A DNA stretch of 64,000 nucleotides from an uncultured Caldithrix sp. (GCA_964461135.1 CAYWTB010000002.1:3585-67584); one strand, 5' to 3'; positions 7,418 to 59,951 are shown, numbered from the stretch's first letter. Program-made: numbers and translations. The notes: a model not told the origin generated them from the letters alone.

Positions 7418-7984
7418 TCAAATCCAATGCGGAAACTCCAAGCATTCTTTAATTCGTTTTTCATAACCTGCAATTTGCTTTTTCAATTTGGTTATTCTGT
7501 CAGAAAGCCTGGAATTCAGTTCATACAGAGACCGTGGATCCGCATGCTTTAACTCGGCCTGTTCTTCTTCCCGTTTTATCAATTCATCAGCCCTGGCCAA
7601 GAGTGGATCCAATTCTTCCTGCAAATCCTTTTTGTATTCTGCCATTCTCTCCACTCTTTTCCGGTTGTTTATCAATCCGGTCTGTGTCTCACAGTGAGAC
7701 ACGCCTTCCTCCACAACCTCTATTTCGGTCTGCAGATCCATTTCACCGGGCGTTAAAACTTCTTGTTTTGCTGAAATATCCTCCTGGAATACTTCATTTT
7801 CATTAATCAGATCGTTTTCACCAGACTCCATGACCTCCGGTTTCGGGTCTGGAACCGGTTGAACTTCCATTTCCTGGGATTTTAACTTTCCTATTTCGAC
7901 CTGAATTCGCTGAAATTCAGTAATCGATATATTAGGATTAAGAAGCTGGCGTTTTAACTGTACGATTTCCCGGGCAACATCCAT
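7418..7984 (-). CDS. Hypothetical coiled-coil protein (contains a hairpin-family copy in frame)
   Basis: 188-aa ORF rich in E/K/Q heptad-like sequence. The palindrome at 7684-7702 encodes VSHCET. Confidence 0.55.
   Translation of the reverse strand: MDVAREIVQLKRQLLNPNISITEFQRIQVEIGKLKSQEMEVQPVPDPKPEVMESGENDLINENEVFQEDISAKQEVLTPGEMDLQTEIEVVEEGVSHCETQTGLINNRKRVERMAEYKKDLQEELDPLLARADELIKREEEQAELKHADPRSLYELNSRLSDRITKLKKQIAGYEKRIKECLEFPHWI
7684..7702. repeat. Hairpin-family copy 1
   Basis: GTGTCTCAC-a-GTGAGACAC, a perfect 9-bp inverted repeat inside ORF 7418..7984. Confidence 0.8.
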
Positions 7985-7986
7985 TC

Positions 7987-8730: not shown

Positions 8731-8733
8731 CGT

Positions 8734-12373: not shown

Positions 12374-12585
12374 ACACCTACTCCTTGTGTTTTTGAGGTG
12401 GTGAAAAGTTAAATCGAAGTTGAAACATTTGTCAAGTCGAAAATTTGAAGAAAATTGTTTTTTTAATTTCACGACCATAATTCAAAAACTGTTGCTGTAC
12501 GCAATAAACAGGAAACGGTTGAACAGTATCTGCCAATTCAGAACTTGTATTAACAACGTACAGGAAGGTATTTATTAAAGTCAAA

Positions 12586-13017
12586 ATGAAAAAATTCGTA
12601 TTTCTGAATGCGTTCTATTCCAAAATGCTTGGTCTTAAACCTGACGAAGCCACCCGGAAACCATTCATCGATTTCGTGGCATCCAAAGATCAGGACATGA
12701 TCACCAAAATGCATCATGACAGGATGAAGGGCAAACCTGCAAAAGACGAATACGAATTACGAGTCATCAATGCTGCCGGAATTCACCGAACCACAAACAT
12801 CAAAGTAAGCATGGTTCAATACAACAATAAGCCAGCTGTTCTTGGGACCGCCAGAGACATCACCGATCAGAAATATGAAGCCGAAGTTACTATTCAAAAA
12901 CAAAAACAGCTGGAAAAAATAATTGCATCAGCACTTGAAATTCTGCTTCCGGATTCAAAAAAAGCCAGAACGGAATTTTTAAACAAACTTCTCGCAAATG
13001 TCGAAAGCAAAAAATGA
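12586..13017 (+). CDS. Stand-alone PAS-domain protein
   Basis: The PAS core ends in the hallmark GTARDITDQKYEAE, preceded by FLNAFYSKMLGLKPDE...YELRVINAAGIHRTTNIKVSMV. No output domain is present. It is one of only four good plus-strand genes in the window. Confidence 0.7.
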   Translation: MKKFVFLNAFYSKMLGLKPDEATRKPFIDFVASKDQDMITKMHHDRMKGKPAKDEYELRVINAAGIHRTTNIKVSMVQYNNKPAVLGTARDITDQKYEAEVTIQKQKQLEKIIASALEILLPDSKKARTEFLNKLLANVESKK

Positions 13018-13106
13018 AAAAAAATTTTGCGCCTATAATTCAATTTTCAAAATTTTCCTATATAGTATTTATATATATATAATAATATATCTAATAATCG
13101 ATTTAT

Positions 13107-13135
13107 GAATTGAAAGAATTGAAAGAATTGAAAGG
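13107..13135. repeat. Three tandem GAATTGAAA(G) repeats next to a (TA)n tract
   Basis: The sequence is gaattgaaagaattgaaagaattgaaagg, located in the PAS-XRE intergenic region. Confidence 0.6.
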
Positions 13136-13212
13136 TGTATCTAAATATTGTGCAGCCGAAAAATTTAAGTTGTTGAAAAATATGGATTTATGAAAATGGC
13201 TGCCCAAAATTT

Positions 13213-13234
13213 CGTGTCTCACATGTGAGACACG
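13213..13234. promoter_or_regulatory. Hairpin-family copy 2; candidate operator of the XRE repressor gene
   Basis: CGTGTCTCACA|TGTGAGACACG is a perfect 22-bp palindrome 45 nt upstream of ATG 13280. Confidence 0.55.
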
Positions 13235-13279
13235 GCGAGTCGATTGTAAAGAGCCACGCTAAAAACGAAAGGAGCTACC

Positions 13280-13639
13280 ATGATTTCACAAGATACGCTG
13301 GACATTATCAGTCGAGTTGTTGCCTTGCGAAAAATCCGGGGCATCAGCCAGGCCGATTTATCTCGCAAGATTAATCTTAGCAAAGGTTCATTGAGTCAGT
13401 TTGAACGTGGCCTCATGCGCCTCAGCGCTGAGAATCTTGGCAAAATCGCCAAAGCGCTGGACACCTCTACGGATTATCTGATTTTTGGCAAAGAAAAGAA
13501 GAATCCTAAAACAACTACAATGGAATTATTTAGAAAATTTCTTAATAACGAGAAAATCAAACAAATGATCAATCTTACCAATGACGAAGAACTGAACGAC
13601 CTTATCCAGCAGATGAAAGACTATCTAAACCAAGACTGA
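13280..13639 (+). CDS. XRE/CI-type helix-turn-helix transcriptional repressor
   Basis: LRKIRGISQADLSRKINLSKGSLSQFERGLMRLSAENLGKIAKALDTSTDYLIFG is a canonical HTH_XRE sequence. The gene is transcribed opposite to the surrounding operons. Confidence 0.85.
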   Translation: MISQDTLDIISRVVALRKIRGISQADLSRKINLSKGSLSQFERGLMRLSAENLGKIAKALDTSTDYLIFGKEKKNPKTTTMELFRKFLNNEKIKQMINLTNDEELNDLIQQMKDYLNQD

Positions 13640-14108
13640 TCACGTTATTGGCGATCTTGTAAACCGGCTTTTCCCATTCCACAGACAGGTAAAGGAGCTT
13701 TTTAAAGAGCTCCTTTTCTATTCTAACCATCTTATCTGCTCGACCTAAATCTTTCATTTTTTCGGCATCAAATATTTTTAATCCCGCCTCCACCACATCA
13801 TCGATCACTTCAATGTGCTGTTTCCCCGGAGCCCTGTCAATCAATTTTTGAAATAATTTAGCATCTATGTTTACAGCTTTGCGGGGTTTTAATTCCAAAA
13901 TCCGTCTTTCGTTTCTTTTTTCAGCTAAAAATTGATCCACTTCTGCCAGGCTAAACCGCAATTCTCCAAGTTCTGTTTTGGAACGCTGTAATCCTTTGTC
14001 CATCCAGCTATATATGGTCTGCCGGGACACACCCGCATGTTTCATAACATCATAAATGGTCATGGTCCGGTTCAGTTTGTCCAGTTTTTCCAAAACATCT
14101 TTTTTCAT
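13602..14108 (-). CDS. Excisionase/MerR-like HTH DNA-binding protein (candidate Cro/early regulator)
   Basis: N-terminal TIYDVMKHAGVSRQTIYSWMDKG is HTH-like. Its 3' end overlaps the convergent XRE gene by 38 nt. Confidence 0.6.
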   Translation of the reverse strand: MKKDVLEKLDKLNRTMTIYDVMKHAGVSRQTIYSWMDKGLQRSKTELGELRFSLAEVDQFLAEKRNERRILELKPRKAVNIDAKLFQKLIDRAPGKQHIEVIDDVVEAGLKIFDAEKMKDLGRADKMVRIEKELFKKLLYLSVEWEKPVYKIANNVISLGLDSLSSAG

Positions 14109-14153
14109 CTGTCAACTCCAATTTTTCATTTTGACTTGACATAAATTAATCAT

Positions 14154-14460
14154 TGTCAATTCAAAAAGCAATAAAAATCATTATTAGTTTACAATCATTT
14201 GTTACTGTCAATCCAAAAAGAAATATTATTCTGTGTTTAGTTTACAACAATCCATAACTGTCAACCCAATATGAAATAAATATTCTTGATTGATTTACAG
14301 TTATCTTTTGCTGTCAATTAAAAACGAAAAATAAATCTATTTCATTTTACAGACTTTTATTATTGTCTAATCATAATGAAATAAATTCCTCAATGAGATT
14401 ACAGGCATTTTTCTATTGTCTAATACAAAAGAAATAAATGTTCGTATCACTTTACAGGTA
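14154..14460. repeat. Six contiguous direct repeats with 52-53-bp period (iteron-like array)
   Basis: TGTC(A/T)A starts at 14154, 14206, 14259, 14312, 14364 and 14417. (T/A)TTACA starts at 14188, 14241, 14294, 14346, 14398 and 14451. Each unit also carries GAAATAAAT-like A-rich boxes. Confidence 0.8.
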
Positions 14461-14483
14461 GATTTAAGCAATCAATCAACATA

Positions 14484-14927
14484 TCATATTCTTTCTGTCT
14501 GTTTGCATTTCGGATAATTCAGGCATCCGTAAAAATCACCATACCTGCCTGTTCTCGGGATCATCGCTGCACCGCACTTCGGACACCGTTTCACCCGATT
14601 CTTATTGGCCGTAAACCACACGATTCTTTGACGCATTCGCTGACTCCACCCAGGGACCCGATACACCTTTTTCGTACCCACAGCTTTTCCGGAAACATTA
14701 TCGAACAGGGCAATCCGAATAGCATCCTCGCCCACTCCCCTGCTCAATCCGGCTTTATTGATCGAGCTGTAAATGGTAATCGAGACACCGTTCAGCGGGA
14801 TCTCATAAATCAACTCACCGGCATACCGCGTTTTTTCTTCACTTAATTTTGCTTTCCCCGGGAGAGCTTTTTCAAAAAACTCTCTGGTAATCAATTCGTA
14901 ATGACCTGGTTGTGCCATTCTTTTCAC
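14484..14927 (-). CDS. Protein with C-terminal topoisomerase-type C4 zinc finger; paralog of 62679..63089
   Basis: The C-terminus is CPKCGAAMIPRTGRYGDFYGCLNYPKCK. The N-terminal ITIYSSINKAGLS...IRI aligns with IRVYSSIPKFGSS...IRI of 62679..63089. Confidence 0.65.
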   Translation of the reverse strand: MKRMAQPGHYELITREFFEKALPGKAKLSEEKTRYAGELIYEIPLNGVSITIYSSINKAGLSRGVGEDAIRIALFDNVSGKAVGTKKVYRVPGWSQRMRQRIVWFTANKNRVKRCPKCGAAMIPRTGRYGDFYGCLNYPKCKQTERI

Positions 14928-15102
14928 CCCTCAGCTTTATCAGTTTAAGATTGCGACAATTCCAACCTAATTTGAAGCGGAATTGCCTCCAGAAATCATC
15001 AAAACGGTTGTTCATGGATTTGATATAGACCTGACCCTTGACAGCGACCATAGAGCCTAATGGAAGCATAAAGTACCAATTCCGAATTTTCTTCTTTCTC
15101 AT
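14872..15102 (-). CDS. Hypothetical small protein (uncertain)
   Basis: 76-aa ORF overlapping the downstream gene by 56 nt. It is preceded by AAGGATGGG and hairpin copy 3. Confidence 0.4.
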   Translation of the reverse strand: MRKKKIRNWYFMLPLGSMVAVKGQVYIKSMNNRFDDFWRQFRFKLGWNCRNLKLIKLRGEKNGTTRSLRIDYQRVF

Positions 15103-15127
15103 ACACCCATCCTTGTGAAATGATGCT

Positions 15128-15148
15128 CATGTCTCACAGTGAGACACG
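15128..15148. repeat. Hairpin-family copy 3
   Basis: CATGTCTCAC-a-GTGAGACACG lies in the intergenic leader, about 26 nt upstream of ATG 15102. Confidence 0.8.
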
Positions 15149-15267
15149 AAAATTCGATTTTAACGGGCTATCGTTTTCGGGGCAACCTGAGTTCATTGTT
15201 TGGGTGATCTTCATTCCTACCCCCTATAAACCCATCGAATTTGGAGCTTTTCCGATGGCATACGGAT

Positions 15268-15825
15268 CTAAAATTCAGACGAACCATTACCGGCGAATTC
15301 CTGAATAGTCTTGATCGCTTCGGCAACATTCCGCAGTTTGACTAATTGCGCCCTTCGATCCACAGACCTTCGGGTAGCATCTCGCAATTCTTCGGTCAAA
15401 TAGTCAACCCGGCTCTGTAACCGAACGTTCTCTGTCCGGAGATCACCAATCTTCCGGTAGATCTTCTTTTTGGATTCTTCCAGAGCATTTTCGCGTTCTT
15501 CGATGTTGTCCAGAAGGGGCTGAATCTCTTTCTGAAAATAGTCACCCTCGGCCCTCTTCATCCGGTACTTAATCCAGGCATCCACTACAGTCGAAAACGC
15601 CCATTCACCGCTGCATTTCCAGATAGCAAAGAACACATACGACCTTTCAGATCCTTTGAGCTCTATCGCTATGTCTTCGATCAGTTGATAACTGGAGCGA
15701 CCATACACATCCTGCAGATCAGTCCACTGTGCAGTCGAACCGCCAGCATAATTCCGAACAACTTCCGTCCACTTTAAAAGCTGGTCTTTGTTCTCAATCT
15801 TCCGAAAATCCACCAAACTTACCAT
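15268..15825 (-). CDS. Hypothetical coiled-coil protein
   Basis: 185-aa ORF with GGAGG upstream. The GTTTAGATTGCTAAAC palindrome (15842-15857) sits in its leader. Confidence 0.6.
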   Translation of the reverse strand: MVSLVDFRKIENKDQLLKWTEVVRNYAGGSTAQWTDLQDVYGRSSYQLIEDIAIELKGSERSYVFFAIWKCSGEWAFSTVVDAWIKYRMKRAEGDYFQKEIQPLLDNIEERENALEESKKKIYRKIGDLRTENVRLQSRVDYLTEELRDATRRSVDRRAQLVKLRNVAEAIKTIQEFAGNGSSEF

Positions 15826-16212: not shown

Positions 16213-16250
16213 TCTTTATCTCCCTGTTTTTATTAGGTTTATTTAAAGGA

Positions 16251-16279
16251 AAAATACATCAGGGAAAACCCATTGTCAA
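16251..16279 (-). promoter_or_regulatory. Conserved promoter cassette (family member)
   Basis: Minus strand reads TTGACA-ATGGGTTTTCCCTGATG-TATTTT. The spacer is nearly identical at 19846-19874. Confidence 0.55.
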
Positions 16280-16382
16280 GTGAAAAATAAAATATATTTT
16301 ATCTTCGCTATACATCATCCAGAAAAAACTAAAAAAAGGGCGACTGCCCATTGACAGCCACCCGATCATTCTCAATCATCAA

Positions 16383-19807: not shown

Positions 19808-19845
19808 TTCTTATCTCCTTGTTAATTAAGAGTTTATTTAATGAT

Positions 19846-19874
19846 AAATTGCATCAGGAAAAAACCATTGTCAA
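19846..19874 (-). promoter_or_regulatory. Conserved promoter cassette (family member)
   Basis: Minus strand reads TTGACA-ATGGTTTTTTCCTGATG-CAATTT. Confidence 0.5.
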
Positions 19875-19914
19875 GTAAAAAATAAAATATATTCATATCA
19901 CCTTTACAGAAGCC

Positions 19915-19933
19915 GTGTAACACTGTGTTACAC
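19915..19933. repeat. Hairpin-family copy 4 (compensatory variant)
   Basis: GTGTAACAC-t-GTGTTACAC. It lies about 40 nt upstream (minus sense) of the -35 box at 19874. Confidence 0.7.
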
Positions 19934-20090
19934 AAGCACTATTTAACACAAAGCCATCCAAAAATATTTTATTTGCTTTTATCAAATTAAATATATGTAC
20001 TACGGTCGCAACAAGCGTCTCTATAAACGTTTGGTACATAAACCCTCCCATCCAGAAGAATACTTTCGGATGGTTTTTTATTTCAACAAT

Positions 20091-20114
20091 AAAAAAGCCC
20101 CAACGAATTGGGGC
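20091..20114 (-). terminator. Rho-independent terminator (minus strand)
   Basis: Minus strand reads GCCCCAATTCGTTGGGGC followed by TTTTTT. A near-identical copy lies at 24161-24185. Confidence 0.6.
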
Positions 20115-20696
20115 TTAAAATTCATTGAATATTCCTTCTGATTTGTTTATATGAAATGCCAACCCTTAAATGTAAGTAACAAAAATAAAAAGATAGCTAT
20201 CAAACGACAACTGTCTATTCAACGTCAATTATTTTTCTTTTCAGAAATTTAATTGTCACCAGTCAATTATCTATAATCATCTTAAAATTAACCTTCTCTG
20301 TTAATATTAGCGGACAGTAAGAAAACACAATTTCCATCAATGCGGCGAGAACCGGCACTTGAATTTCTCACTGCCCGTACTTATAAATAATTGGAAATGA
20401 TTTCCTGCTTGTAGAGCTCAATCACAGATATGAAGATAGAATTATAAGGCACGTCCCTGTGCCCGTCCTGTCATTTTTCAACCGGAGGAGGCCAGCTCTT
20501 CCATTTTGTTGAGCCAGTGCCCGGTACGTTGGAGTGTGCAAAGTTTTTGATACAGAGGAGTGTTATCTTTTTTATGGTAAATAATATTTGCCTATCCCCC
20601 CATCTCACCGATCACGGCGAGAATCTCCTGATAGTTTTTCTGATAGGCCTCACGGATTTCCCGCCGTGTCATCATTTTTCTATTCAGACCGGTGAT

Positions 20697-21116
20697 TTAT
20701 TTTTTATTCTTATTTTTCTTTTTAGCCTGTCCCGGGGGATATTTTTTCTGGTGCTCTTTGTAGTACAGATACGGTTTATCCGTCTCCAGTTCCAGGGTGA
20801 CCAATTCCCCCAGTTTTACTCTCAAGCCTGAGGGTAATTCGGCACTTACCCTCCAGTTATCACCGGAAAGATAAAAGTAGAGTTTACGGTTAATGTCAAA
20901 ATAAACCGCACAGGCCGGATAATAATGATACCGGTATTTCGCCCGATACCCGTGGGCAGGTGCATGAGGAGGCGGGCCTTTTTTATCGGGAGGCAGCTGA
21001 CTCCATTTTGCATGACCCGGGGAACCTGATTCAATACCGCCGCGGGTTGAGCTGCAGGACGTTATAAACAGAAGAATTACCGAAAAAATGAAAAACCGAA
21101 ACAAATAAATCACCAT
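20697..21116 (-). CDS. Putative lipoprotein
   Basis: Signal peptide with lipobox LLFITSC. The mature part is Pro/Tyr-rich and the tail is Lys-rich. Confidence 0.55.
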   Translation of the reverse strand: MVIYLFRFFIFSVILLFITSCSSTRGGIESGSPGHAKWSQLPPDKKGPPPHAPAHGYRAKYRYHYYPACAVYFDINRKLYFYLSGDNWRVSAELPSGLRVKLGELVTLELETDKPYLYYKEHQKKYPPGQAKKKNKNKK

Positions 21117-21422
21117 GACCTCTTTATCCTTTTAGTCATTATCTCCTGTTTATATTATCGGCGGGATTTAAACTCACTTAACAAATGTTCCAGGGTTAAA
21201 AAGGCTTGGAATAATTTATCTGGTTATACAAAGCACAAAAGCTTTGAGAATAATATTATTCCAGAAATACTTTAAACGAAAAAGAGGAAATTTAAAACAC
21301 CTTAAAAAATTCATTTAATCTTCATTATTTACTCTCAGATTAAAATTCGGGATTGAATTTAAAGGTATGATTAAAAATAGATTTTCGGTTTAAAAAAACA
21401 GCATCTCCCTGGAGTACACAAT

Positions 21423-22382: not shown

Positions 22383-22714
22383 ATTATGTAAAAAAAGACG
22401 AATTATTTTTTACGGGCAGTGCAGCGTATAGTTTTAATACACACCTTATGTGTAAGATTCTGGCAGGTCGACAAACCAGATTCCTACAACGCATTGAATT
22501 AATTGACTTAAAAATAGTAGTGAAAAATTCACTATTGAATATTAAAATCCAGTAAAGTAAATTCATTCAGAGCTCCTTAGTCTAGCTCCAATATGATAAT
22601 GAATTAAAAAAATAAAATAGATCAATAAACAAATCATCCACAGGACTACTTTAATTATTTTTCTATATAAATTATAAAATTAGGTCTAACAAACTTTAGC
22701 CAGAGAAAAATATC

Positions 22715-23086
22715 ATGCAAGTCGCTGGCAAATGGCCTCGTATTCTGGTTATTGTCGGATTTGTCCTGATGCTGATCGGCATCCTTGATCCTCTGGAAGG
22801 ATCCCTGGTCATCCTCCCTGGGACCGGCCTGGTGGCACTTGGAGCACTGCTCAGAAACAGCCCGTCCAGAATTTTGATCTCCTGGGCATTTTGGCTGGTT
22901 TTGTTTGGTATTGGTGCCATGTGGGGATTGAGTGCGATCGGGGGGATTGGCGGAGAGACCGGCCGCTCGCACTGGTGGGGACTAACCATTCTACCCTATC
23001 CAATCGGTTGGATTATGGGTTTTGTGGGTGCCATCCGTATATTTCGGGAACATTCCCGGTATGTAAGACCACATGCTGTGCAATAG
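22715..23086 (+). CDS. Small integral membrane protein
   Basis: 123 aa with three or four hydrophobic helices (ILVIVGFVLMLIGIL, LVLFGIGAMWGL, ILPYPIGWIMGFVGAI). Confidence 0.5.
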   Translation: MQVAGKWPRILVIVGFVLMLIGILDPLEGSLVILPGTGLVALGALLRNSPSRILISWAFWLVLFGIGAMWGLSAIGGIGGETGRSHWWGLTILPYPIGWIMGFVGAIRIFREHSRYVRPHAVQ

Positions 23087-23295
23087 CCAACAGATAGAAT
23101 GCTTTGTACACAGCTTTTAGGGAATTGTAGCTGCAAATGTCTGATTTTTAATTTATTCATGTCAACAACAACATAAAATTCTATCTAATTTTCCAATTGT
23201 TTTTAAATCTTTGATTCGCTAAACTGTTGACGTCAGCCGATCCCTCCCTTAAATCCCACCTCCCTATTAAAATAGTTTACTAAATGGCTGACATG

Positions 23296-23325: not shown

Positions 23326-23375
23326 TATATTTATTATAAAATTTTTTGTTAATTTAAAAGACATAGAGCTTTTCA

Positions 23376-23392
23376 TGTGTCACAGTGACACA
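23376..23392. repeat. Hairpin-family copy 5 (variant)
   Basis: TGTGTCAC-a-GTGACACA. It is preceded by a 37-nt arm shared with copy 6 (aaattttttgt.a.tttaaa.ga.c.tagagcttttc). Confidence 0.7.
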
Positions 23393-23424
23393 CGAAGTCA
23401 TTTCAATAAATTTTCTTTAAAACT

Positions 23425-35144: not shown

Positions 35145-35165
35145 CATTTCCCACTGTGGGAAATG
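35145..35165. repeat. Hairpin-family copy 6 (compensatory variant)
   Basis: CATTTCCCAC-t-GTGGGAAATG, a perfect 10-bp stem. It lies about 47 nt upstream (minus sense) of the -35 box TTGACA at 35098..35093. Confidence 0.7.
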
Positions 35166-49311: not shown

Positions 49312-49494
49312 CCACTCCCATTCAGATAATTTCTAAAACCCAAATTTCATATTTTCAACCGGAATTTTTTAATCAGATTCTTTTCCTCTCCTACACCGGT
49401 AATCCGCATCTGATTGAACCGCTTGCTCCTGACTTCCATTCGAAAATAAAAATTATCAGTCAGAATACTGCCATTCGATTTCTTCACCATATTC

Positions 49495-49515
49495 CATGTC
49501 TCACAGTGAGACGTG
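49495..49515. repeat. Hairpin-family copy 7
   Basis: CATGTCTCAC-a-GTGAGACGTG (one T-G pair). Confidence 0.75.
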
Positions 49516-49583
49516 GGCAAAATATCACAAGTGTCGAGAAAAAATCGCCAGATGCTAAAAAACCACCAAAATACCCCAAATAA

Positions 49584-49639
49584 ATGCGTCGTAAATCGAC
49601 CTGGATTCAACTAAATAGGTTGAACAATATGATAGGTTG
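49584..49639. repeat. 56-nt repeat Z, copy 2
   Basis: The sequence is atgcgtcgtaaatcgacctggattcaactaaataggttgaacaatatgataggttg. Confidence 0.8.
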
Positions 49640-49891
49640 AACTTACCTATTCGTAAAAATAAAAAGCCCCACCACTTTCTATAGTGGCAGGGTTTTTATA
49701 ACACAGGAAGCTATGATAAGTCTATATCTTTAATCTGAATTTCTTGATCAGCTGCGTTTCCTCACGTCCCTCTGATACATTCCTTCTATTGAAACACATA
49801 TTTCTTAAACCTGTCAGCAGCTAAATGATTAAATCCCCGGCATTATCAGGTTTGAATCCTTTCACTCACAAATTTTCCTCTGTTCATAAAT

Positions 49892-49921
49892 AAAAATGCC
49901 CCGCATTGAACGGGGCTTTTT
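49892..49921. terminator. Bidirectional rho-independent terminator after the T9SS beta-helix gene
   Basis: GCCCCGCATTGAACGGGGC is flanked by A-rich and T-rich runs. An identical hairpin lies at 55180-55198. Confidence 0.65.
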
Positions 49922-49940
49922 AGGTTGTAAAACGAACAGG

Positions 49941-52793
49941 TCACTTCATGAACAACATTTTTTTCGACTGCACAAAATCTCCTGCCTGAATGCGGTAGAC
50001 ATAGAGACCTGATGCTACTGAATTGCCATGATCATCCTGACCGTTCCAGACCACCTGATGAGTCCCGGCGGATTTTGGTTCGTTGAGCAGAGTCCTGATC
50101 CTGCGACCGGAAACATCAAAGATGTCAATTCTGACACTGACCTCTTCGGGCAGATCGAATGAAATGGTGGTGGATGGATTGAAGGGATTCGGAAAAGCCT
50201 GGTTTAACCGGAATTCGATAATTGTTTTGATGGTTTGATCTTTCAACCCACTTTTCCGACTGAATTCCTCCTTGTTTTCGCCCACCAGAATATGGGCAAG
50301 GAAGGTCAGCTCATCATCGGGATAGGCAGATTCCATACGGGTAAGTAGCTCCGCTGCTTTCTTGAAATCGCATTTTATTTCCACATGATACGCGATGGCA
50401 TCGTACAGGGCAGTCAGCTCATGAAAAGTATCTGGATATTCATCGATGATCCGGTCATAAAGAGATATCATGCTGTCATAATTCCGTGCCAGTGCATACT
50501 CCAGCGCCTGAAATCGTAGACCAAAGGGCCGCAGGCTGTGCTCTTTTGGTTTTGCTATCAGTTCCGCAAGCAGACTGTTCAGCTCTCCCTGAACGATGCT
50601 TTTGTTTCGTATCGATTTGGGATCCCGCAGCTCCCTTTGGGTAAGATTGTTATACATTACCACCGAAAGCGCAGCATATTTGGAACCCGAGTTATTATCG
50701 ATAAGTCCTTTTAGAATTTCCTTGGCCTTTTCATACTCCGATTTATATCCGGCCTGCAGGGCTTGATTGAAAAGCTCCTCTTCCCCAGTGACCTCTGTAC
50801 TGGTTTTTTCCACGACAGGCGTTTCCCCGAATTCTGTAGATCCCATATTCATCGATAATACTTCGACGCTACGTTCAGAATTGGGATTTGTGGAAAGCGG
50901 ATAACGATTGGTAATCGTCGATGTCCCATCGGCATAATTTAAAGGCCCCTCCGGTCCCCAATAGTTAAAATCCGCTTGTACGTTGGAATGGTTCTCTACC
51001 CAGATATGCGGCAAATCGCAGTCATAGATACTGTTATAGCCGCCTTTCTCACCGGTGCCACCATAACCCAGAAATGAAGAGGCATAATTTTGGACCTTTA
51101 TCAGGGGGGCAGCGGAGTAATTTACGGTATTATGACCATGCCAATTGTCTCCCTCAGAGTCTCTTGTCGCAAACCAAGGGTGCCCACCGTTGATAAGCAC
51201 CCGGCAATCGTAGATATAGTTATACATCAAATGAGGGGATGATGAATTCAAAAAGATTCCCCATTTCGTAAAATCCACATGGCTTATGCTATTGTCACGA
51301 TAATCTGGAACGGTAGTAACATAATCAGCCTGGATGCCGTAAATATAGCTGTTTTGAATGGTATTTCCAGTTAGGAAAGCCTCCGAGGAGTAGCAGCGAA
51401 TCCCATAGCGACAGGAAGTAAAGGTATTATCAGATACGGTAACATCAGTTCCGGTATTGAGTGCATAGACCCCGATACCGTTTGCCCCCGAACCGGTAAA
51501 GCTGCAATTGTTGATATTAACCGAATTTTCAGAATTATAAACCGTGATAGCCCGGGCATCCGAATTATACCCGAAGGATGAATAATTGCAATGGGAAATG
51601 GTGGCGCCAGAAGTATTGCGGATAAGCAGATGATAAGGTGAAGAAGTAAAATTGGTGTATTGAAGATTGGCCGAGGCTCCATCCTTTATTTCTACCATGG
51701 AATTGGTGTAGTCAACCCTGGAATAACCCTGGCCGTTGATAATGACGGGATTGCCGGCAGAACCAAGACAGTTAAACGCGCCATAATCTTCGATTTTATA
51801 ACTGCCGGTGAAAGCAATATTTACACCGGGATTAAAGTTCAATGATTTTGAAGAGGGCACTGTCAGGTTAGCAGATTGTGTAAATGAACAAGAATTGACA
51901 TAGGTTGCCCAGCCGTTTGAGGTCCAGTTCAAAACATAAGGAATGGTATAGGAAGATGGGAAAAAACCTTTAAAATATGAGCCCGCTTTTACATAAATGG
52001 AACAGCCATTTATTGTACCATTGCTTATGATATTACCGGTACCTTCGCATTTTAAAACATATCCATTCAGATTGACGATAGCGTCAGATCGTATGTTTAA
52101 TGTAATTCCTGAAGGAACAGTTACATTTCCCGACAAAGTATGAGTCTTGCCTCCTGCTCCAATCCAGGTTTTATGATAATTTGTAAGTGTGCCAGTGTGG
52201 GTTGTTTTGAGTTTTTTGAAAGCATGTCCCCTGTCTTGTTTCAAATAGTAACAATCATGATTTTTGGCATGTTGATATAATCCACAATTTCCCCATTTGG
52301 AAACATAATCCCTACCATCTTCAATTACACATGGATAAGAATTTTGAATTTTTCTAACTGAATGATCATCGTCTGTATACCAAGAATGGGTTGCTTCCGA
52401 TTCAGAAGCACTCAAATAGGATGGTTGTCCATCATTTGACCATGCCACATCTGTCCAAAAATAGGTTTCAACATCTGGATCTTCCCTTGTTCCAATCCAC
52501 ACTGCTTCACAACCTTCCGAAAGACTCCAGGCGTAACCATGACAATTATAGGTACCGGAGGCATTTCCAATACGTACTGCATTGAGCTGATAAGGGTCTA
52601 TATAATAGTGTTGTACATACCAGTGACAATAATCAATATCACTTTGTGACATTTCTTGCGGTGTATCTGCAGGGCAAGGTCTTCCTTCTGGTGTCCTGAT
52701 TGTTATATCCCCTGCATATAAGAGATGCTGATAGAGAAAAATAAATAATATAAAAAGATAAACAAACATAGTTTTATAAGTTTTTATACACAT
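49941..52793 (-). CDS. Large secreted protein: parallel beta-helix repeats + TPR-like helical region + T9SS-type C-terminal sorting domain
   Basis: Signal peptide is FVYLFILFIFLY. There are many NxxI/G-rich beta-helix repeats (ISHCNYSS, NINNCSFTGSG, VSDNTFTSC, LTGNTIQNS). The C-terminal sorting domain is FPNPFNPSTTISFDLP...GLYVYRIQAGDFVQSKKMLFMK. Confidence 0.75.
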   Translation of the reverse strand: MCIKTYKTMFVYLFILFIFLYQHLLYAGDITIRTPEGRPCPADTPQEMSQSDIDYCHWYVQHYYIDPYQLNAVRIGNASGTYNCHGYAWSLSEGCEAVWIGTREDPDVETYFWTDVAWSNDGQPSYLSASESEATHSWYTDDDHSVRKIQNSYPCVIEDGRDYVSKWGNCGLYQHAKNHDCYYLKQDRGHAFKKLKTTHTGTLTNYHKTWIGAGGKTHTLSGNVTVPSGITLNIRSDAIVNLNGYVLKCEGTGNIISNGTINGCSIYVKAGSYFKGFFPSSYTIPYVLNWTSNGWATYVNSCSFTQSANLTVPSSKSLNFNPGVNIAFTGSYKIEDYGAFNCLGSAGNPVIINGQGYSRVDYTNSMVEIKDGASANLQYTNFTSSPYHLLIRNTSGATISHCNYSSFGYNSDARAITVYNSENSVNINNCSFTGSGANGIGVYALNTGTDVTVSDNTFTSCRYGIRCYSSEAFLTGNTIQNSYIYGIQADYVTTVPDYRDNSISHVDFTKWGIFLNSSSPHLMYNYIYDCRVLINGGHPWFATRDSEGDNWHGHNTVNYSAAPLIKVQNYASSFLGYGGTGEKGGYNSIYDCDLPHIWVENHSNVQADFNYWGPEGPLNYADGTSTITNRYPLSTNPNSERSVEVLSMNMGSTEFGETPVVEKTSTEVTGEEELFNQALQAGYKSEYEKAKEILKGLIDNNSGSKYAALSVVMYNNLTQRELRDPKSIRNKSIVQGELNSLLAELIAKPKEHSLRPFGLRFQALEYALARNYDSMISLYDRIIDEYPDTFHELTALYDAIAYHVEIKCDFKKAAELLTRMESAYPDDELTFLAHILVGENKEEFSRKSGLKDQTIKTIIEFRLNQAFPNPFNPSTTISFDLPEEVSVRIDIFDVSGRRIRTLLNEPKSAGTHQVVWNGQDDHGNSVASGLYVYRIQAGDFVQSKKMLFMK

Positions 52794-52809
52794 GGTTGTG
52801 CCCTTAAAA

Positions 52810-53538
52810 TTAATATATGTTTAGAAATTCTTTTGCTTTTTGAATAACAAGATTTAGGACATCGTTATTTTGTAATTGGCCAGTTTTTAATAAATGTTTC
52901 ACACCTGGTGATTTAGATAGAGCCTCCAAGATTCTATTTCCCTTTCCTTTGAATTCTAATAACCTTGCAATCGAGTAAGTATTAAATTGAATGCTCACAA
53001 TTGAAAAAATTTCAGGATGATTAATTTTGAATTCGTTTTTCTTTAACAATTCATTTAAGAATGTTTTTACTTCTGATTTTGTCATTTTCTCAAGAATACT
53101 TTCATGAGAGATAAGAACTTCAATAAAAACAAAGGAGAAGGTAAAAGCTCCTTTCTCAACATTATCCCAACTCGATTCATATGCAGCAGGATCCATTCTT
53201 TGGTAAAATTCGATCAACTTTTGTGATGCATCTCTTCGCTTTAGTAATTCTCGTAATCCGTTAAAATCATTATATGCATGTTCGAAAGCGTTATGTATAT
53301 AATTGTAAATTAGTATGTAACCAGGATAGCGGCTATCTAAATATTCCTGAATCAACATTTCTGTAGATATAGTAGAAAGATTTGCCTCCGGAATCTGCTC
53401 TGCCAATTTTATTTCATCCAATGGTCTTCCATCCTGTTTACTTTGCGCATTAACTTGGAAACTACAGCTAAAGACACAAAAGCAAATAAAGAAAGAACAA
53501 AACAATTTTTTCTTTTTTGTTTTCATTACAACCTCCAA
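52810..53538 (-). CDS. Hypothetical secreted protein
   Basis: 242 aa with a signal peptide (LFCSFFICFCVFSCSFQVNA). AT-rich gene. Confidence 0.5.
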   Translation of the reverse strand: MEVVMKTKKKKLFCSFFICFCVFSCSFQVNAQSKQDGRPLDEIKLAEQIPEANLSTISTEMLIQEYLDSRYPGYILIYNYIHNAFEHAYNDFNGLRELLKRRDASQKLIEFYQRMDPAAYESSWDNVEKGAFTFSFVFIEVLISHESILEKMTKSEVKTFLNELLKKNEFKINHPEIFSIVSIQFNTYSIARLLEFKGKGNRILEALSKSPGVKHLLKTGQLQNNDVLNLVIQKAKEFLNIY

Positions 53539-53551
53539 TTAATTTATTTGA

Positions 53552-54679
53552 TTATTTAACGCCTCTATAAAGAAGGATGACCCCTTCCGCTTCGGTATTA
53601 ATCTCTTCTAAACCAACTGCCCATCCTAAGTCATTATTAATAAAATAAAAGGAATTAATGTTATAAACATTCATATCTTCCTGTAGAAATTTCCATGTTT
53701 TCCCTCCATCTCTTGTTTGAATGATTGCAGAAGGACCTGCCCCTGGAAAAGTACCTAACCAGCCGTTCAATGTATCAACAAAAAAGAAGATTTTTACACC
53801 CAAAAATATTGGCCATGATTCGGGTGATCTTTGAACCCATATACTTCCGCTATCTGTTGTTCGATAAAAACCCAGACAATCATCTCTGCTCCCTACCCAA
53901 CCGTTATTCTGATCCACAAATTGAATTGTTGTAAGAGATGGTGCTGGTGATATATTAAGATTTCTCTTTTCCCATGTTAATCCAATGTCCATAGTTAAAA
54001 GTACGTTTCCGCCAAAGCCACATATCCAGATATTTTGTCTATCAACAATGGAAATATGCGTTAGCGTTGATAAACCGTGTGGTATGGCATCACTCCATGT
54101 TTCTCCACCATCTTCTGTTTTCAACAAAACACCTGTACTTCCAAATGAACCTCTACCTCCAACTACAAAACCAATGTTCCTATTTAAAAATTGTATATCA
54201 CGAAAACGTCCTTCTCCTAAATCTTCACTATATTTTAGCTCCCAATTTTCTCCTCCATCTGTTGTCTTCAAAATAGAATGCCAGCTACAAATCCAACCAT
54301 TTCTACTATCAACAAAATCAACCGCCCATAATGACTCTTCTATTGGGCACATTTGGCCTTGCCATGTTTCACCGCCGTTTTTTGAATTAATAATTACACC
54401 ACTATCTCCAACAACCCAACCGTTTCGTTCATCACTAAAATCAACATCATATAACCATACTGACACACCGCTTTTAATTTTAATCCATGTTCCAACTCCA
54501 TCATTCAATGCAGCTGGCAGTGCAGCCGGGTTTTTATTACAATCTTGAATGAGGATACAAAAAACAAAAAGTGATATTATTTTAAATTTTATTTCCTTCT
54601 CCTCTTTTAATCTATTATAAAAACGGGTGGAGAATGATAAAGTATGGAGAAATTTACTGATAAACGGCACATGTGACAC
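53552..54679 (-). CDS. BNR/Asp-box repeat beta-propeller protein (Ycf48/sialidase-like)
   Basis: Six Asp-box-like repeats are present: SKNGGETWQ, TTDGGENWE, TEDGGETWS, TMDIGLTWE, TTDSGSIWV and TRDGGKTWK. Confidence 0.75.
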   Translation of the reverse strand: MSHVPFISKFLHTLSFSTRFYNRLKEEKEIKFKIISLFVFCILIQDCNKNPAALPAALNDGVGTWIKIKSGVSVWLYDVDFSDERNGWVVGDSGVIINSKNGGETWQGQMCPIEESLWAVDFVDSRNGWICSWHSILKTTDGGENWELKYSEDLGEGRFRDIQFLNRNIGFVVGGRGSFGSTGVLLKTEDGGETWSDAIPHGLSTLTHISIVDRQNIWICGFGGNVLLTMDIGLTWEKRNLNISPAPSLTTIQFVDQNNGWVGSRDDCLGFYRTTDSGSIWVQRSPESWPIFLGVKIFFFVDTLNGWLGTFPGAGPSAIIQTRDGGKTWKFLQEDMNVYNINSFYFINNDLGWAVGLEEINTEAEGVILLYRGVK

Positions 54680-55060
54680 AATTCCTTTTGGTTAAGTTGA
54701 CGGAATCTGCCCTTTTAACCGTTCGCGGATACTTCCTGTTTGGATTAATTTTAATTTATACCATTCAATTGAATTTGTCAAGAGAAATCTTCAACTTTAT
54801 GAAAATATTTTTCAACGTATTCAGAGAATATGGTACAAAATCATCTTTATTCCATTCTTCTTAATTTTGTCAAATATTCAAGGATATTCATTCCCCTTTT
54901 ATTCCAAACAATTCAAATTTTCAGCCGGAAATTTTTAATCAGATTCTTTTCCTCTCCCACACCGGTAATCCGCATCTGGTTGAATCGTTTGCTCCTGACC
55001 TCCATTCTAAAATCAAAATTCTCCGGCAGTATTCCCCCATTCAGTTTCTTCACCATGATC

Positions 55061-55081
55061 CATGTCTCACCGTGAGAAATG
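55061..55081. repeat. Hairpin-family copy 8 (degenerate)
   Basis: CATGTCTCAC-c-GTGAGAAATG (9 of 10 positions pair). Confidence 0.65.
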
Positions 55082-55174
55082 AGCAATACATTTCTTCCAA
55101 ATCGGTCATCTACAATTTTCACGGATAAATCAATACCAAAAACATGATTAATTTGTCAGGCAAAAGACTAAAAA

Positions 55175-56339: not shown

Positions 56340-59300
56340 CTACCGCACTGCTTGAGCCCTTAGACTGGACTTGGCTTTTATCGATTGCGATTCATCTACA
56401 GCGACCATAGACCAAGTTATTCGTTTCATATACTTATATAACTGTTTACTTTTTACGGAATGCCCCTTCAACCATTTCTTACCGGCTTTCCATTTACACA
56501 CCGGACATTCCTTGCCAGTAAATTCCCTACCACATTTCCCGCACTTCCCCGGAATATACGTAGTCGAATAACTGGTCATTTTCTCATAGCTGACTATATA
56601 AAATATGGTCTCATTTGTAGCCTTAATTCCGTTCACATCATCCGGTCCAACAATAACCTTGTATTTCAACCCAATCCGATCTGCAATTTCTATCCAGGTA
56701 TCAATCAAGCTGGATAAACAAACAATCAATACTTTCTTCATACCCATGACCGTTGCCAGAGCATAAGTCGTATCTGTCTTACCCAAACCCTGCAAATACC
56801 CGAGATAATTGAACGGCTTCAAAGCCAAACGAGCTACATCCTGTTTCTGATAAGGAAACAAATAATCAAATTGCGGAAATTCCTCGAACTTCTTCAACCA
56901 TTTCTTGTATTCAGGGCGATAAGCAGTCATAATCCCTGTTTGGTCTGTACTGAATCCCATATCTACCTTACCAAACAAGGTGTTGAATTCAAATTCTTGC
57001 GAGTCATTAGTTCCATATCTATTTGATTTAAAAACTTTCAATTCGCCCCTTCCAAACGTAAATTCTTTTTCTTCATCTTCCGAGCTAACTGTAATCAACC
57101 TGTTTTCACCCTCTCCCTCAACTTTAGTCACCAAATAATAACTCCCATCGCGATACAAATAAGTCCACCAGATTTTTTCATGAACAGTAGACTGGGCTTG
57201 AACATGATCACCCGATTTTACAGTGCCAAAGATATCATTCTCATCAATATGTTCATACGGATCCCCTTCAAAAATTTCATACGGAGTTTCCATCCGCGTA
57301 AACCATTTCCGCTTTTTCTTAATCCAGTTCAATAGCTGTGGATCAATCCTAACCCTTAATCCCATAGCTTTTAAATACCAAACCAGATCACTGAAAAACA
57401 CATCTCTTTTCTCGGTGTAGAAATTCTTCAAATTCGTATGTGTCTTATAACCATATTCATAATCCTGAGCTTGGTAACTCCAGACAGGTCCTAATATTAC
57501 ATTCTTCAATTCCTCAACTTTAAGTGCTGCTATCAAACCCTTGGGCTTCATAACAATATCATATTGACCGAGCTTCAAATCGACCACATCCACATCGGTT
57601 TCGGGCAATGTCTTTGTCCAGGGTTCAACCGGTATCTCCGGATTCGGATTATATTTCCTGAGAACAAGATCGTAGTCCAATACTTGGTATCTTTCAAAAT
57701 GCCTTTCCAGTAATCCCCACCATTCAGATTGCCTGAACCGTTCCACTGCTGCATGACCCGGATTGACTTTATCCAGTTTTTCATCCCAGACAATTTGATG
57801 AAAAAACTGGTCTGTCCGACCCATCTGCCAATCCCAATCTTTAAGCAAAATCCATACGAAGGTTTTAGCTTCCGTACCGTTTGGTTTGAATGTTTCTTTC
57901 GGAAGATCAATCACTCCGATTTCAGTACAACTGTTCCTGATCCATCTGCGAAAATGCATCATATCTTCTCTATCCAACGTACCCTGCGGTAAAACGGCGA
58001 AAAGAATTCCACCCTTCCTCAGCGATCTCACAGCAATTTCCATGGTTGCCAAATGACTCATCACACGCCCCTCGTATCCAGATCTTTCCAGAATCGTTTC
58101 ATCCTCTGCTCTCCAGTGCAAACCAAAGGGTGGATTCGTCACCACCACATCCATCTGTTCTTCCACATCTTCAACGTGATAGATCACATCATCCTGAATC
58201 AAATTGGCATTTGGCATAACAGCCTGTGCAACCTTGATTGCAGTATCTTCTATCTCAATTCCGTATTTCGTAACATTGCCCGGAAAATTCCAGAGCAGAC
58301 TTCCGGATCCACAGGTCGGATCGAACACTCTCAGTCTTTGATCTAAAAACTTGTTCGGCAAAAGAGCAGTTATCATTTCTGAAACCCAGAGCGGAGTCAA
58401 ATACTGTCCACCGGCGAGAATATTCGAAGCTGTATAACCATATTCCTGAATCTGTTCCTGGGTAGCTTTTATCAATCCTCCCCAACCAGTAAAATACCGT
58501 ATGGCTTTTTCCGGATCTACCGAACCATCCTCGATCATCTGCAGAACTGTTTCATTGTTGTGCTTTCTATCCCCATCCCGAAATTCATATTTCCGAACTT
58601 CCTGTATGGGTTCGGAAATATCTTCAAACGGCAATTCAAGTTCTTTCAGCTTTTCTTGTATTGCCTTAATCTCTCCCCTTGCATAAGCGATATGTCCAGC
58701 CACCAGGCTAAAAGCAACCCGTGGATCATCTACTATATTATGATCTCCCTCAAAGGGCCCTCCCCATTCTTTCAGCAAGGCTTCATACCGATCCAATGAA
58801 TACTTTAGTCCTTCAATATTTTCATTAAGTTTTTTTCGCAATCCTTTCTCATTGTCGGGCAATTCAAATTTGTTTGCTTCAATGGACGGAATATCAGATA
58901 CCGGAACTGGATCATTCTTGAAATAATATTGAGAATGGAAAATATCATACTCTGGCAAAAGATAATTCGGTACTTCTCCGCGTTTTCTGTTTTCTCTAAG
59001 TACCTTAGCCACCCTCTGTAACAATTCTTCGTCTCCACATTCCCGAACTACCTCCTTCGTGAGCGATTTTATGTGTTGCCTGATCGTAGCTGTTCGTTCA
59101 TCAGATTCAGCCCACTCCTTCAAACTGTCATATACGTCCAACCACTCATGCAAATCCGTCCATTTCTCTGCTTCAAGCGCTTCTTCTGGTACAACCACAT
59201 CGTTTTCCGTTACAGTTTCATTCTGAGCTTCCCGAACCTGTCTCCAATTCAACCCGGCACTCCACTCATCATTTTCACCAGTTTTGATCGGGCATTCTGA

Positions 59301-59951
59301 AATTTCATAGGGCTTCATTTCCGGATAGATCCCCCGTTCAACCAAAAGAAGCTGTTTCTTAACTTGTTCTAAATAATTCTTCAATTCTTTTTGATTCGTT
59401 ATCCCACCACCAAAGTCATTGCTTTTGAGCTTTGCAACCAATTCATCCCGAATCATTATCAATCCCATCTTGATCGCTTCTTCTCTTGTCAAAAACTTGT
59501 ATCTATCCCAAATTGACGGTCCACTACAATGTCCCGGAACCCACATCCCAACCCCCCAACCGTCCGGAGCTTCCCCGATTTCCAGCTTACAAAAGGAAGC
59601 ACCTTTTTTAGACTTGAATTCAAGTTCAGTGATAACCATTCTGAAATGAACCCACCCATATTCAATGCTGGCATCACTTTCCTTAAATCCCCAATGCGAT
59701 GCCCGCTTAATCTCAATCGTATTTTCTTCCTTTTGCCGGGCTTCATGAGTTTCGTAATCAGATGCCAGTTTGGTTTTCCTTAAAGCCCGAATCTCCGGAA
59801 TCGCATCCAGATCAATTACAAACCCGGGAGCAAAAACCCGTGTCTCACAGTGAGACACGACATGAGACTCCGCAACCGGAGCCTCATTCGCGCCTTTCCC
59901 CTCAACCTCACCTTCCTGCGGTGCTATATCAAAAATAGATAACTGTCCCAT
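56340..59951 (-). CDS. Large fusion protein: N-terminal unknown region + N6-adenine DNA methyltransferase + SNF2-type helicase N-lobe, ending prematurely after motif II
   Basis: The methylase shows VFDPTCGSGSLL (motif I) and VVVTNPPFG (motif IV). The SNF2 part shows LFPYQKQDV...LQGLGKTDT (motif I), a zinc-ribbon insert CGKCGREFTGKECPVCKWK, and VAVDESQSIK (motif II). A stop follows at ...SSLRAQAVR. No motifs III-VI are present. Confidence 0.75.
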   Translation of the reverse strand: MGQLSIFDIAPQEGEVEGKGANEAPVAESHVVSHCETRVFAPGFVIDLDAIPEIRALRKTKLASDYETHEARQKEENTIEIKRASHWGFKESDASIEYGWVHFRMVITELEFKSKKGASFCKLEIGEAPDGWGVGMWVPGHCSGPSIWDRYKFLTREEAIKMGLIMIRDELVAKLKSNDFGGGITNQKELKNYLEQVKKQLLLVERGIYPEMKPYEISECPIKTGENDEWSAGLNWRQVREAQNETVTENDVVVPEEALEAEKWTDLHEWLDVYDSLKEWAESDERTATIRQHIKSLTKEVVRECGDEELLQRVAKVLRENRKRGEVPNYLLPEYDIFHSQYYFKNDPVPVSDIPSIEANKFELPDNEKGLRKKLNENIEGLKYSLDRYEALLKEWGGPFEGDHNIVDDPRVAFSLVAGHIAYARGEIKAIQEKLKELELPFEDISEPIQEVRKYEFRDGDRKHNNETVLQMIEDGSVDPEKAIRYFTGWGGLIKATQEQIQEYGYTASNILAGGQYLTPLWVSEMITALLPNKFLDQRLRVFDPTCGSGSLLWNFPGNVTKYGIEIEDTAIKVAQAVMPNANLIQDDVIYHVEDVEEQMDVVVTNPPFGLHWRAEDETILERSGYEGRVMSHLATMEIAVRSLRKGGILFAVLPQGTLDREDMMHFRRWIRNSCTEIGVIDLPKETFKPNGTEAKTFVWILLKDWDWQMGRTDQFFHQIVWDEKLDKVNPGHAAVERFRQSEWWGLLERHFERYQVLDYDLVLRKYNPNPEIPVEPWTKTLPETDVDVVDLKLGQYDIVMKPKGLIAALKVEELKNVILGPVWSYQAQDYEYGYKTHTNLKNFYTEKRDVFFSDLVWYLKAMGLRVRIDPQLLNWIKKKRKWFTRMETPYEIFEGDPYEHIDENDIFGTVKSGDHVQAQSTVHEKIWWTYLYRDGSYYLVTKVEGEGENRLITVSSEDEEKEFTFGRGELKVFKSNRYGTNDSQEFEFNTLFGKVDMGFSTDQTGIMTAYRPEYKKWLKKFEEFPQFDYLFPYQKQDVARLALKPFNYLGYLQGLGKTDTTYALATVMGMKKVLIVCLSSLIDTWIEIADRIGLKYKVIVGPDDVNGIKATNETIFYIVSYEKMTSYSTTYIPGKCGKCGREFTGKECPVCKWKAGKKWLKGHSVKSKQLYKYMKRITWSMVAVDESQSIKAKSSLRAQAVR
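59839..59859. repeat. Hairpin-family copy 9
   Basis: CGTGTCTCAC-a-GTGAGACACG, a perfect 10-bp stem inside the 5' end of ORF 56340..59951 (encodes VSHCET). Confidence 0.8.

Follow-up and report, generated by a model that had tools for sequence, protein, structure and literature searches.

Dispersed palindromes with covarying arms in a salt-marsh phage-like element may act as short RNA stem-loops

Several described families of short repeated sites offer points of comparison for a palindrome that recurs in the DNA analyzed here. The stoperators of phage L5, to which the phage repressor binds, are duplex sites of 13 bp that are asymmetric and all point the same way. REP/BIME sequences are short and imperfect extragenic palindromes of chromosomes that carry a GTAG head on the repeat and are associated with a Y1 (HUH) RAYT transposase gene. 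Among phages, dispersed stem-loop families are already known in the RNase III sites of the T7 group (R0.3–R18.5) and in the PeSLs of T4-type phages, the latter being composite terminator/promoter motifs that mediate insertions and deletions (indels) (PMC2839356, PMC4122927). We studied a 64,000-nucleotide stretch assigned to an uncultured Caldithrix sp. and derived from a salt-marsh metagenome (GCA_964461135.1 CAYWTB010000002.1:3585-67584; the window in what follows), in which nine copies of a short palindrome with a conserved center are scattered over a phage-like module and the blocks beside it.

The nine palindromes are 17–22 bases long, share the center CAC-N(1–2)-GTG, and all lie where an earlier note on this DNA had placed them. 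Chance as their origin was ruled out by shuffle controls: the string GTCTCAC-N-GTGAGAC occurs four times in the window and the broader pattern YRTGTNNCAC-N-GTGNNACAYR, which the note had given for the family, five times, and neither occurs in any of 100 dinucleotide-preserving shuffles. The window has 14 CACNGTG heptamers, and eight of them sit at the center of perfect arms of 6–10 bp. A census of perfect palindromes (arm of at least 8, spacer of at most 6) found 21 in the window against 7.7 ± 2.2 in shuffles, with 7 of the 21 coming from the CAC-N-GTG family. A looser scan of the window (10-bp arms, at most two mismatches) did not find a tenth copy and detected one solo half-site, at 7289. 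Among the nine copies only the apex CAC-N-GTG is invariant. The palindromes are best read as one short stem-loop family, in which base-pairing below the invariant apex is the property that is kept.

The pairing of the arms was evaluated within the window and among relatives. In the nine window sites, 96.7% of the stem cells pair and four pairs change on both sides, a result reached by none of 500 shuffles. Relatives were reached through a 69%-identical homologue of the XRE repressor and eight homologues of a Zn-ribbon protein, from marsh and sediment samples, and comprise the contigs L212, L214/L215, L216, L217, and L219. With the sites of four related metagenomic phage-like contigs included, 17 in all, 95.9% of the stem cells pair and 6 of the 10 stem pairs are doubly changed (14 cells); again, 0 of 500 shuffles reached this, and slid controls collapsed. 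The copy ahead of a small open reading frame (ORF) and the Zn-ribbon gene keeps its place in L212, L214/L215, and L219 as in the window, and the start of the L217 contig falls within its palindrome at this site. In the sense direction, this site reads CGTGTCTCAC T GTGAGACATG in the window, CGTGTCCCAC T GTGGGACATG in L212, CATGTCTCAT T GTGAGACACG in L214/L215, and AGTACCAC C GTGGTACT in L219. Its arms thus take the forms TCTCAC/GTGAGA, TCCCAC/GTGGGA, and GTACCAC/GTGGTAC, with three pairs changed, and its flanks are only 70–80% identical. The note had taken paired changes on both arms as a sign of selection on a stem-loop and had pointed to related elements as the place to look for covariation; the four pairs in the window, the 6 of 10 over the 17 sites, and the compensated arms at orthologous sites all bear this out, the orthologous sites more strongly.

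Other copies are less constant in position. The distant relative L216 retains the even palindrome of the XRE gene, there 26 nt ahead of the XRE orthologue, and L212, L214, and L215, three of the four relatives examined, have none upstream of theirs. Copies have been gained or lost within indels of 39–55 nt, as seen at window position 13223 in comparison with L212 and at L212 4056–4076 in comparison with the window. L214, part of a 42-kb phage contig with amidase and RadC, carries four copies, each intergenic, in a 3.4-kb part of its early region; three have the asymmetric apex CAT-T-GTG (RNA CAU-U-GUG) in the same sense orientation, and the copy at 6474–6494 stands upstream of a module homologous to that beside the window copy at 19914..19934. 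The center is one nucleotide long in eight window copies and two in the 13223 copy and in L216, a variation in length that is tolerated by a loop and not by a rigid dimer.

Our preferred reading, which we hold at a probability of about 40%, is that the copies are cis-acting RNA stem-loops that punctuate phage-type polycistronic transcripts, their apex being read by a protein, and that they control processing, stability, or translation. With nearly all genes of the window reading the same way, on the – strand, each copy would be transcribed. The predicted RNA fold at each copy is a hairpin whose stem of 10–11 bp closes a loop of three bases. Of the eight copies with a one-base center, seven come out at about –11 to –14 kcal/mol; the 55071 copy is the exception at –6.4. 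The hairpin would stand just past a stop codon or 4–60 nt ahead of a start codon and would serve as a cis signal punctuating the polycistronic transcripts of the phage-derived region, as a place where an endonuclease enters or processes the RNA, a structure that protects an end, or a local translation brake. The conserved apex (CAC-N-GUG or CAC-AU-GUG) would be the part recognized by a protein. We infer action in RNA and not in DNA, recognition of the apex by a nuclease or other RNA-binding protein, and an effect on expression. The reading is supported by the location of the copies in co-directional gene arrays, where they closely follow stops or precede starts. Intergenic sequence contains seven of the nine, against a coding fraction of 0.83 for the window (∼83%; binomial P ∼ 1e-4), and the non-random placement seen earlier is in this sense real.

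The copy at 13213..13234 (13223), the only one on the + strand, is an even palindrome, CGTGTCTCAC AT GTGAGACACG, and ends 45 nt upstream of the XRE gene (13280–13639). The note had its coordinates, like those of the other copies, right, but had described a single central base, and the center is in fact AT between arms of 11+11 bp. The copy at 15128..15148 (sense CGTGTCTCAC T GTGAGACATG) ends 25 nt upstream of a 76-amino-acid (aa) ORF (14872–15102) that precedes the Zn-ribbon gene (14484–14927). Three copies are arm variants. That at 19914..19934 (sense TGTGTAACAC A GTGTTACACG) ends 39 nt upstream of the TTGACA box 19874–19869, which is part of a repeated promoter/5′ untranslated region (UTR) module. 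That at 35145..35165 (35155; CATTTCCCAC A GTGGGAAATG) follows the stop of the type III res gene by 164 nt and precedes the TTGACA box 35098–35093 by 46 nt, and its flanks extend it into a long bulged stem. These locations relative to the XRE gene, the small gene at 15.1 kb, and the two TTGACA boxes agree with those previously given. The third variant, at 23374..23394 (23384; sense CGTGTGTCAC T GTGACACATG), starts 31 nt past the stop of the ORF 23425–23910, and a canonical terminator (AGCCCCAC..GCGGGGCTTTTT) lies ∼45 nt beyond it.

Two further copies, at 49495..49515 (49505; sense CACGTCTCAC T GTGAGACATG) and at 55061..55081 (55071; imperfect, sense CATTTCTCAC G GTGAGACATG), end 4 nt upstream of the ATG codons 49490 and 55056, the starts of two copies of a 47-aa ORF; both were found as described, except that each has one unpaired position within its 10-bp arms. 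The 47-aa ORF itself (MVKK..FRLKI; 49347–49490 and 54913–55056, – strand) starts in each case 4 nt past the palindrome and has no Pfam match, and it is a real small gene, since the differences between its copies are mostly synonymous. The last two copies are intragenic. One, with the sense sequence CGTGTCTCAC T GTGAGACACA, had been placed at 7684–7702 and extends to 7683..7703, the outermost position being T·G; it lies within a 188-aa ORF (7418–7984) at codons ∼95–101. The other, at 59839..59859 (perfect 10+1+10, CGTGTCTCAC T GTGAGACACG), lies inside the ORF of a 1,203-aa N6-methyltransferase at codons ∼31–37, and a second strong hairpin, at 59864–59885, adjoins it inside the 5′ coding region. 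Both are read as VSHCET, as had been noticed; with two of three frames open, this agreement is without significance. RNase III sites of the T7 type are bipartite hairpins of about two helical turns, in which an internal loop separates an upper from a lower stem; in the present family, bipartite extended stems are found only at 35155 and at L214 7804, and the other copies are without a consistent lower stem.

We considered other functions for the copies and rejected them. They are not intrinsic terminators, since flank inspection showed a T-run at none of the nine on either strand; a terminator scan of 12400–15400 does not list the palindromes there, and a T-run does follow one copy in a relative, L214 7049. 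Hairpins at the 5′ end of a transcript, just behind a promoter, were rejected: –10-like hexamers lie 5–9 nt upstream of several copies, with no –35 element and no conservation in relatives. No GG-N10-GC box was seen by eye near the copies, as a pairing of sigma-54 enhancer and promoter would require. A methyltransferase target was also rejected, GTCTC/GAGAC being present in the main arm type and GTCTC being absent from the variant arms.

The comparison with the T7 group starts from an exact match. The even 18-mer TGTCTCACATGTGAGACA occurs in 19 stretches in viral contigs, most of them from SP6/K1-5/K1E-like coliphages, where it is multicopy and makes up the upper stem of 60-nt bipartite hairpins; the upper stem of the K1-5 group, TGTCTCAC-AT-GTGAGACA, is identical to the window copy at 13215–13232. 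The frame ACTCAAGG...CCTTTAT|GAT, common to the coliphage hairpins and the mapped T7 RNase III sites, brings the two into alignment, and this very sequence is therefore an RNA processing hairpin in one phage group or more. The T7 site and cleavage coordinates, which we take to be those of Dunn and Studier (1983), are borne out by the shared motif. Of the three roles that the earlier note had listed, RNA processing signals is thus the one that fits best, the same 18-mer being the upper stem of T7-type hairpins in those coliphages.

The window family resembles the T7-group sites in consisting of dispersed conserved stem-loops between co-directional phage genes, just past stops and just ahead of ribosome-binding sites, and in stems that vary by compensated change; an intergenic sense position in a co-directional unit is found for seven of the nine window copies and all four L214 copies. 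It differs in having neither the ACTCAAGG...CCTTTAT|GAT lower stem nor the internal loop, in stems of mostly only 10–11 bp, in two intragenic copies, and in its host, an uncultured salt-marsh bacterium and not an enterobacterium. Lacking the lower-stem motif, with most stems below the 34-nt minimal RNase III substrate (PMC1540722) and with only 35155 and L214 7804 bipartite, the window family is not counted here as a member of the T7 family; that it works like the T7-group sites is a tentative analogy.

The same core recurs in further unrelated elements. The 19-mer GTGTCTCAC-N-GTGAGACAC was found in more than 119 metagenomic stretches, most of them from conjugative elements of gut/rumen Firmicutes that carry RepA_N, ParB_N, ArdA, ArdC, NikA/MobC, and a serine recombinase. 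In gut/rumen contigs (L092–L170) the palindrome appears many times as GGAAAT-GTGTCTCAC-S-GTGAGACAC-ATTTCC, with variants that include TTGTCTCAC and CGTTTCAC, up to three times per 5 kb; the longer version lies 15–63 nt ahead of start codons, and its center base, read in the sense of the gene downstream, is C in 25 of 32 cases. The window and gut palindromes have in common the 19-nt core, an invariant apex and variable lower stem, an intergenic location, several copies per element, and mosaic flanks. The gut stems are longer, however, at 14–15 bp (GGAAAT..ATTTCC or AAAAAC..GTTTTT), many being followed by a T-run, and their center is S where that of the window is W. No protein shared between the window and the gut elements was found, and their palindromes may or may not have a common origin. 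The IMG/VR contig L235 (G+C 0.68) has three copies of TGTCTCACATGTGAGACA with G+C-rich extensions within 2 kb (963–3020), two of them 40 bp apart, and is a further unrelated lineage using the same core. One might suppose that GUCUCAC-N(1–2)-GUGAGAC is a portable module read by a single, widely conserved host factor, RNase III or another hairpin-specific protein, and taken up independently by SP6/K1-5 coliphages, Firmicutes conjugative elements, the high-G+C element, and the salt-marsh phage lineage; we regard this as unlikely.

Several observations weigh against a role in RNA. A DNA hairpin or cruciform would pair just as well, and two of the nine copies are intragenic. No RNA run was found to contain the window. 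None of the nine copies is flanked by the T7 lower-stem motif, and the bare stems of 10–11 bp, 21–25 nt in all, fall below the 34-nt minimal substrate of Escherichia coli RNase III (PMC1540722). The arms are nearly identical in six of the nine window copies and in both L212 copies, so recent spread, conversion, or sequence-specific recognition is needed besides pairing. The 18-mer shared with other elements could be a coincidence, given the many hairpins in the collections. A strand preference that would betray RNA was sought in the G·U counts and rejected: the asymmetry of G·U against A·C comes to ∼6–7 events versus 4 with shared ancestry allowed for and is not significant.

Near-identity of the arms is what recognition of the duplex would produce, and a double-stranded DNA operator for a dimeric regulator encoded by the element, be it the RstR/DicA-like XRE protein, the HTH_17 protein, or another, would coordinate several promoters; we consider this somewhat unlikely. 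KorA/KorB, stoperators, and CI/Cro operators are models for such coordination. The dyad symmetry with half-sites of ∼10 bp and the homogeneity of arms within a genome fit an operator, as does the layout of the regulatory genes: one copy precedes the XRE gene by 45 nt, the even palindrome of L216 precedes the XRE orthologue by 26 nt, a conserved second copy heads the convergent small-ORF/Zn-ribbon/HTH_17 operon so that two copies bracket the regulatory module, and two copies lie ∼85–92 nt upstream of putative start sites. A dimer would not need, however, the variation between sites to stay complementary within each site, as it does with 6 of 10 pairs doubly changed, and the half-site spacing, expected to be fixed, varies by 1 bp. 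The XRE-proximal copy is missing from L212, L214, and L215 although their XRE is intact at 57–68% identity, and the base-contacting recognition helices of the XRE protein (S/T-K-G-S-L-S-Q-F-E) and the HTH_17 protein (VSRQTIYSW) are unchanged while the arms go from TCTCAC to TCCCAC. Four copies are perfect with arms of 9–11 bp, unusual for natural operators, and copies also lie in blocks unrelated to the phage-like module. The likeness to the stoperators of L5 and Cluster A, many copies of one short site scattered in a phage genome with transcribed regions included, stops at this point: the window sites are palindromic with the center base as their only asymmetry, and they have covarying arms whose changes the candidate repressor does not follow. 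These points weaken the case for a simple operator of XRE or HTH_17, and a stoperator-like repressor site or XRE operator is not supported as the leading role, given a copy missing in three of four relatives, a center that varies, and helices that do not follow the arms. A related duplex reading, a parS- or KorB-operator-like site bound by a ParB-family CTPase clamp for partition or long-range silencing, is very improbable. The half-site TGT-N-N-CAC is akin to that of parS, TGTTNCAC|GTGAAACA, the KorB operator is likewise an odd palindrome with a central S, the gut variants include CGTTTCAC-g-GTGAAACG beside a ParB_N gene, and the sites are dispersed and in part intragenic. Yet among the ∼78 ORFs of the window scanned against Pfam none matches the ParB family (ParB_N), the extra central base and the variable position 4 depart from the canonical 16-bp parS and 13-bp OB, compensated arm changes are not expected with a conserved ParB, and the copies of K1-5 type are clearly RNA hairpins.

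Spread of the DNA itself would also yield near-identical copies within one genome, and a hairpin- or cruciform-forming DNA repeat, spread or exchanged by recombination, could mark cassette boundaries with any effect on expression secondary; this too is unlikely. The flanks form a mosaic that pivots on the palindrome, the upstream flank of 35155 being that of 49505 and its downstream flank that of 23384, with the downstream flank of 49505 common to 55071. The gain and loss of copies between relatives inside the 39–55-nt indels, two composites of stem-loop and TTGACA promoter, and one Logan contig that joins 49419 to 55125 point the same way, the last being a marsh contig that reflects a deletion between two 180-nt repeats. 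PeSLs, as composite terminator/promoter motifs mediating indels, provide a precedent; as in the window, stem-loops there recur together with recurrent early promoters among small accessory genes, and close relatives differ by indels and replaced modules (PMC2839356, PMC4122927). Only two of the nine window copies are joined to a promoter, however, at 39–46 nt upstream of TTGACA modules, and their stems have no T-run, an apex invariant in sequence, and a context that is not a T4-type phage. Target-site duplications are lacking, which rules out a MITE-like insertion, and strain-level breakpoints in block 1, seen in low-depth contigs, are not at the palindromes. A center of 1–2 nt does not fit the 6- to 8-bp overlap of tyrosine-recombinase cores, and neither a Y1/HUH transposase, RAYT/Y1_Tnp included, nor an integron-type integrase was found among the ORFs scanned. 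The role as hairpins for a recombinase or HUH enzyme, another of those first proposed, is accordingly without its enzyme there, while the indels and flank mosaics keep a DNA role as a rival. With REP/BIME the window sites share short palindromes that are extragenic, a genome-specific sequence, compensatory variation, and presence/absence polymorphism, and both may stabilize mRNA; the window sites differ in having no GTAG head, in being perfect palindromes, and in residing, as far as visible, on a phage-like element. The small-ORF site is held at one position across five lineages with compensated changes, which argues for a local function rather than a selfish or neutral repeat.

The first 20 kb of the window (1–20 kb) are a phage-type early/replication module, with a DnaC-like loader, AAA_24, DUF669, a tyrosine integrase, a PD-(D/E)XK nuclease, the RstR/DicA-like XRE repressor, the HTH_17 protein (13602–14108), the Zn-ribbon protein, DUF2958, and DUF6011. 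Beyond it lie TrkH, a histidine kinase, and a sigma-54 activator (25–31 kb), a type III restriction-modification system (35–40 kb), proteins with type IX secretion system (T9SS) tails (50–56 kb), and the 1,203-aa N6-methyltransferase with a beta-clamp (56–61 kb). TrkH is at most 50% identical to any GTDB match, and by this comparison the lineage of the window is without a close representative genome. Nothing useful was returned by a megablast search of window positions 1–25000 against a phage collection, by a 31-mer search of a plasmid collection, by a search of viral contigs with the methyltransferase and PD-(D/E)XK proteins, or by look-ups at either end of the window, and a 19-mer search of GTDB genomes gave only single matches at chance level. 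No known RNA family or tRNA was found in the window or the related loci, Rfam having no matching family, and the palindrome strings of the window, the 18-mer, and the gut versions had no match in the literature searched. The methyltransferase (56340–59951) has no relative at E ≤ 1e-20 among 5.8 billion proteins and gives only weak matches, to MADS2 and, below threshold, to models of the Alw26I/Esp3I family.

Further repeats and rearrangements were observed in the window. A second repeat family, built from an A/T-rich tract, cTTGACAATGG, and a conserved leader with AAGGAGATAA at its end, occurs at 2518–2566, 16216–16305, 19811–19900, 33041–33130, and 61181–61229, and also at 40791–40870/44556–44635 and 49134–49174/54770–54810; it looks like a reused sigma-70 promoter/5′UTR module, and L214 6532–6637 is homologous to it. 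Just upstream of the XRE-proximal palindrome, at 13050–13136, an AT-rich tract is followed by three direct repeats of GAATTGAAA, a layout that resembles a replication origin and of which L212 retains a shorter version. A 65-nt noncoding block at 35222–35287 and 49574–49639 is ∼97% identical in surroundings of only ∼70%, and sits 60–90 nt upstream (sense) of the palindromes 35155 and 49505; a 21-mer from its conserved part (D5 block) matched no GTDB genome, and it has no Rfam match. A 28-nt terminator-like direct repeat, 93% identical, at 20091–20118 and 24162–24189 flanks a 4-kb segment that holds the only + strand genes of that part of the window and may be an inserted cassette (20091–24189). 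An unrelated perfect palindrome with 14-bp arms (GAAATGGTTTTTAT a ATAAAAACCATTTC) lies at 41065–41093, inside a 184-aa ORF (41025–41579). A 143-aa PAS ORF (12586–13017) is what remains of an HTH+PAS gene of 564 aa, which L212 has intact (432–2126). Marsh contigs with loose ends on either side of the integrase gene (5774–5817 and 7383–7410) suggest that this gene is a strain-variable cassette.

The presence of one 18- to 19-nt palindrome in many copies in unrelated mobile elements of several phyla was unexpected. It could be a coincidence given the size of the collections, or could reflect an undescribed host factor or constraint shared by these elements, among which the gut conjugative elements carry cargo genes. 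If the palindrome were a portable module, the minimal 10-bp version of the window would be a new, shorter class of signal. The sites coincide with cassette boundaries and may help to explain the exchange of modules in these elements. If the copies do punctuate RNA, they would extend the T7 strategy of dispersed processing hairpins, in a shorter and apex-defined form, beyond the Autographiviridae, and would provide a testable handle on how polycistronic transcripts are shaped in an uncultured phage lineage.

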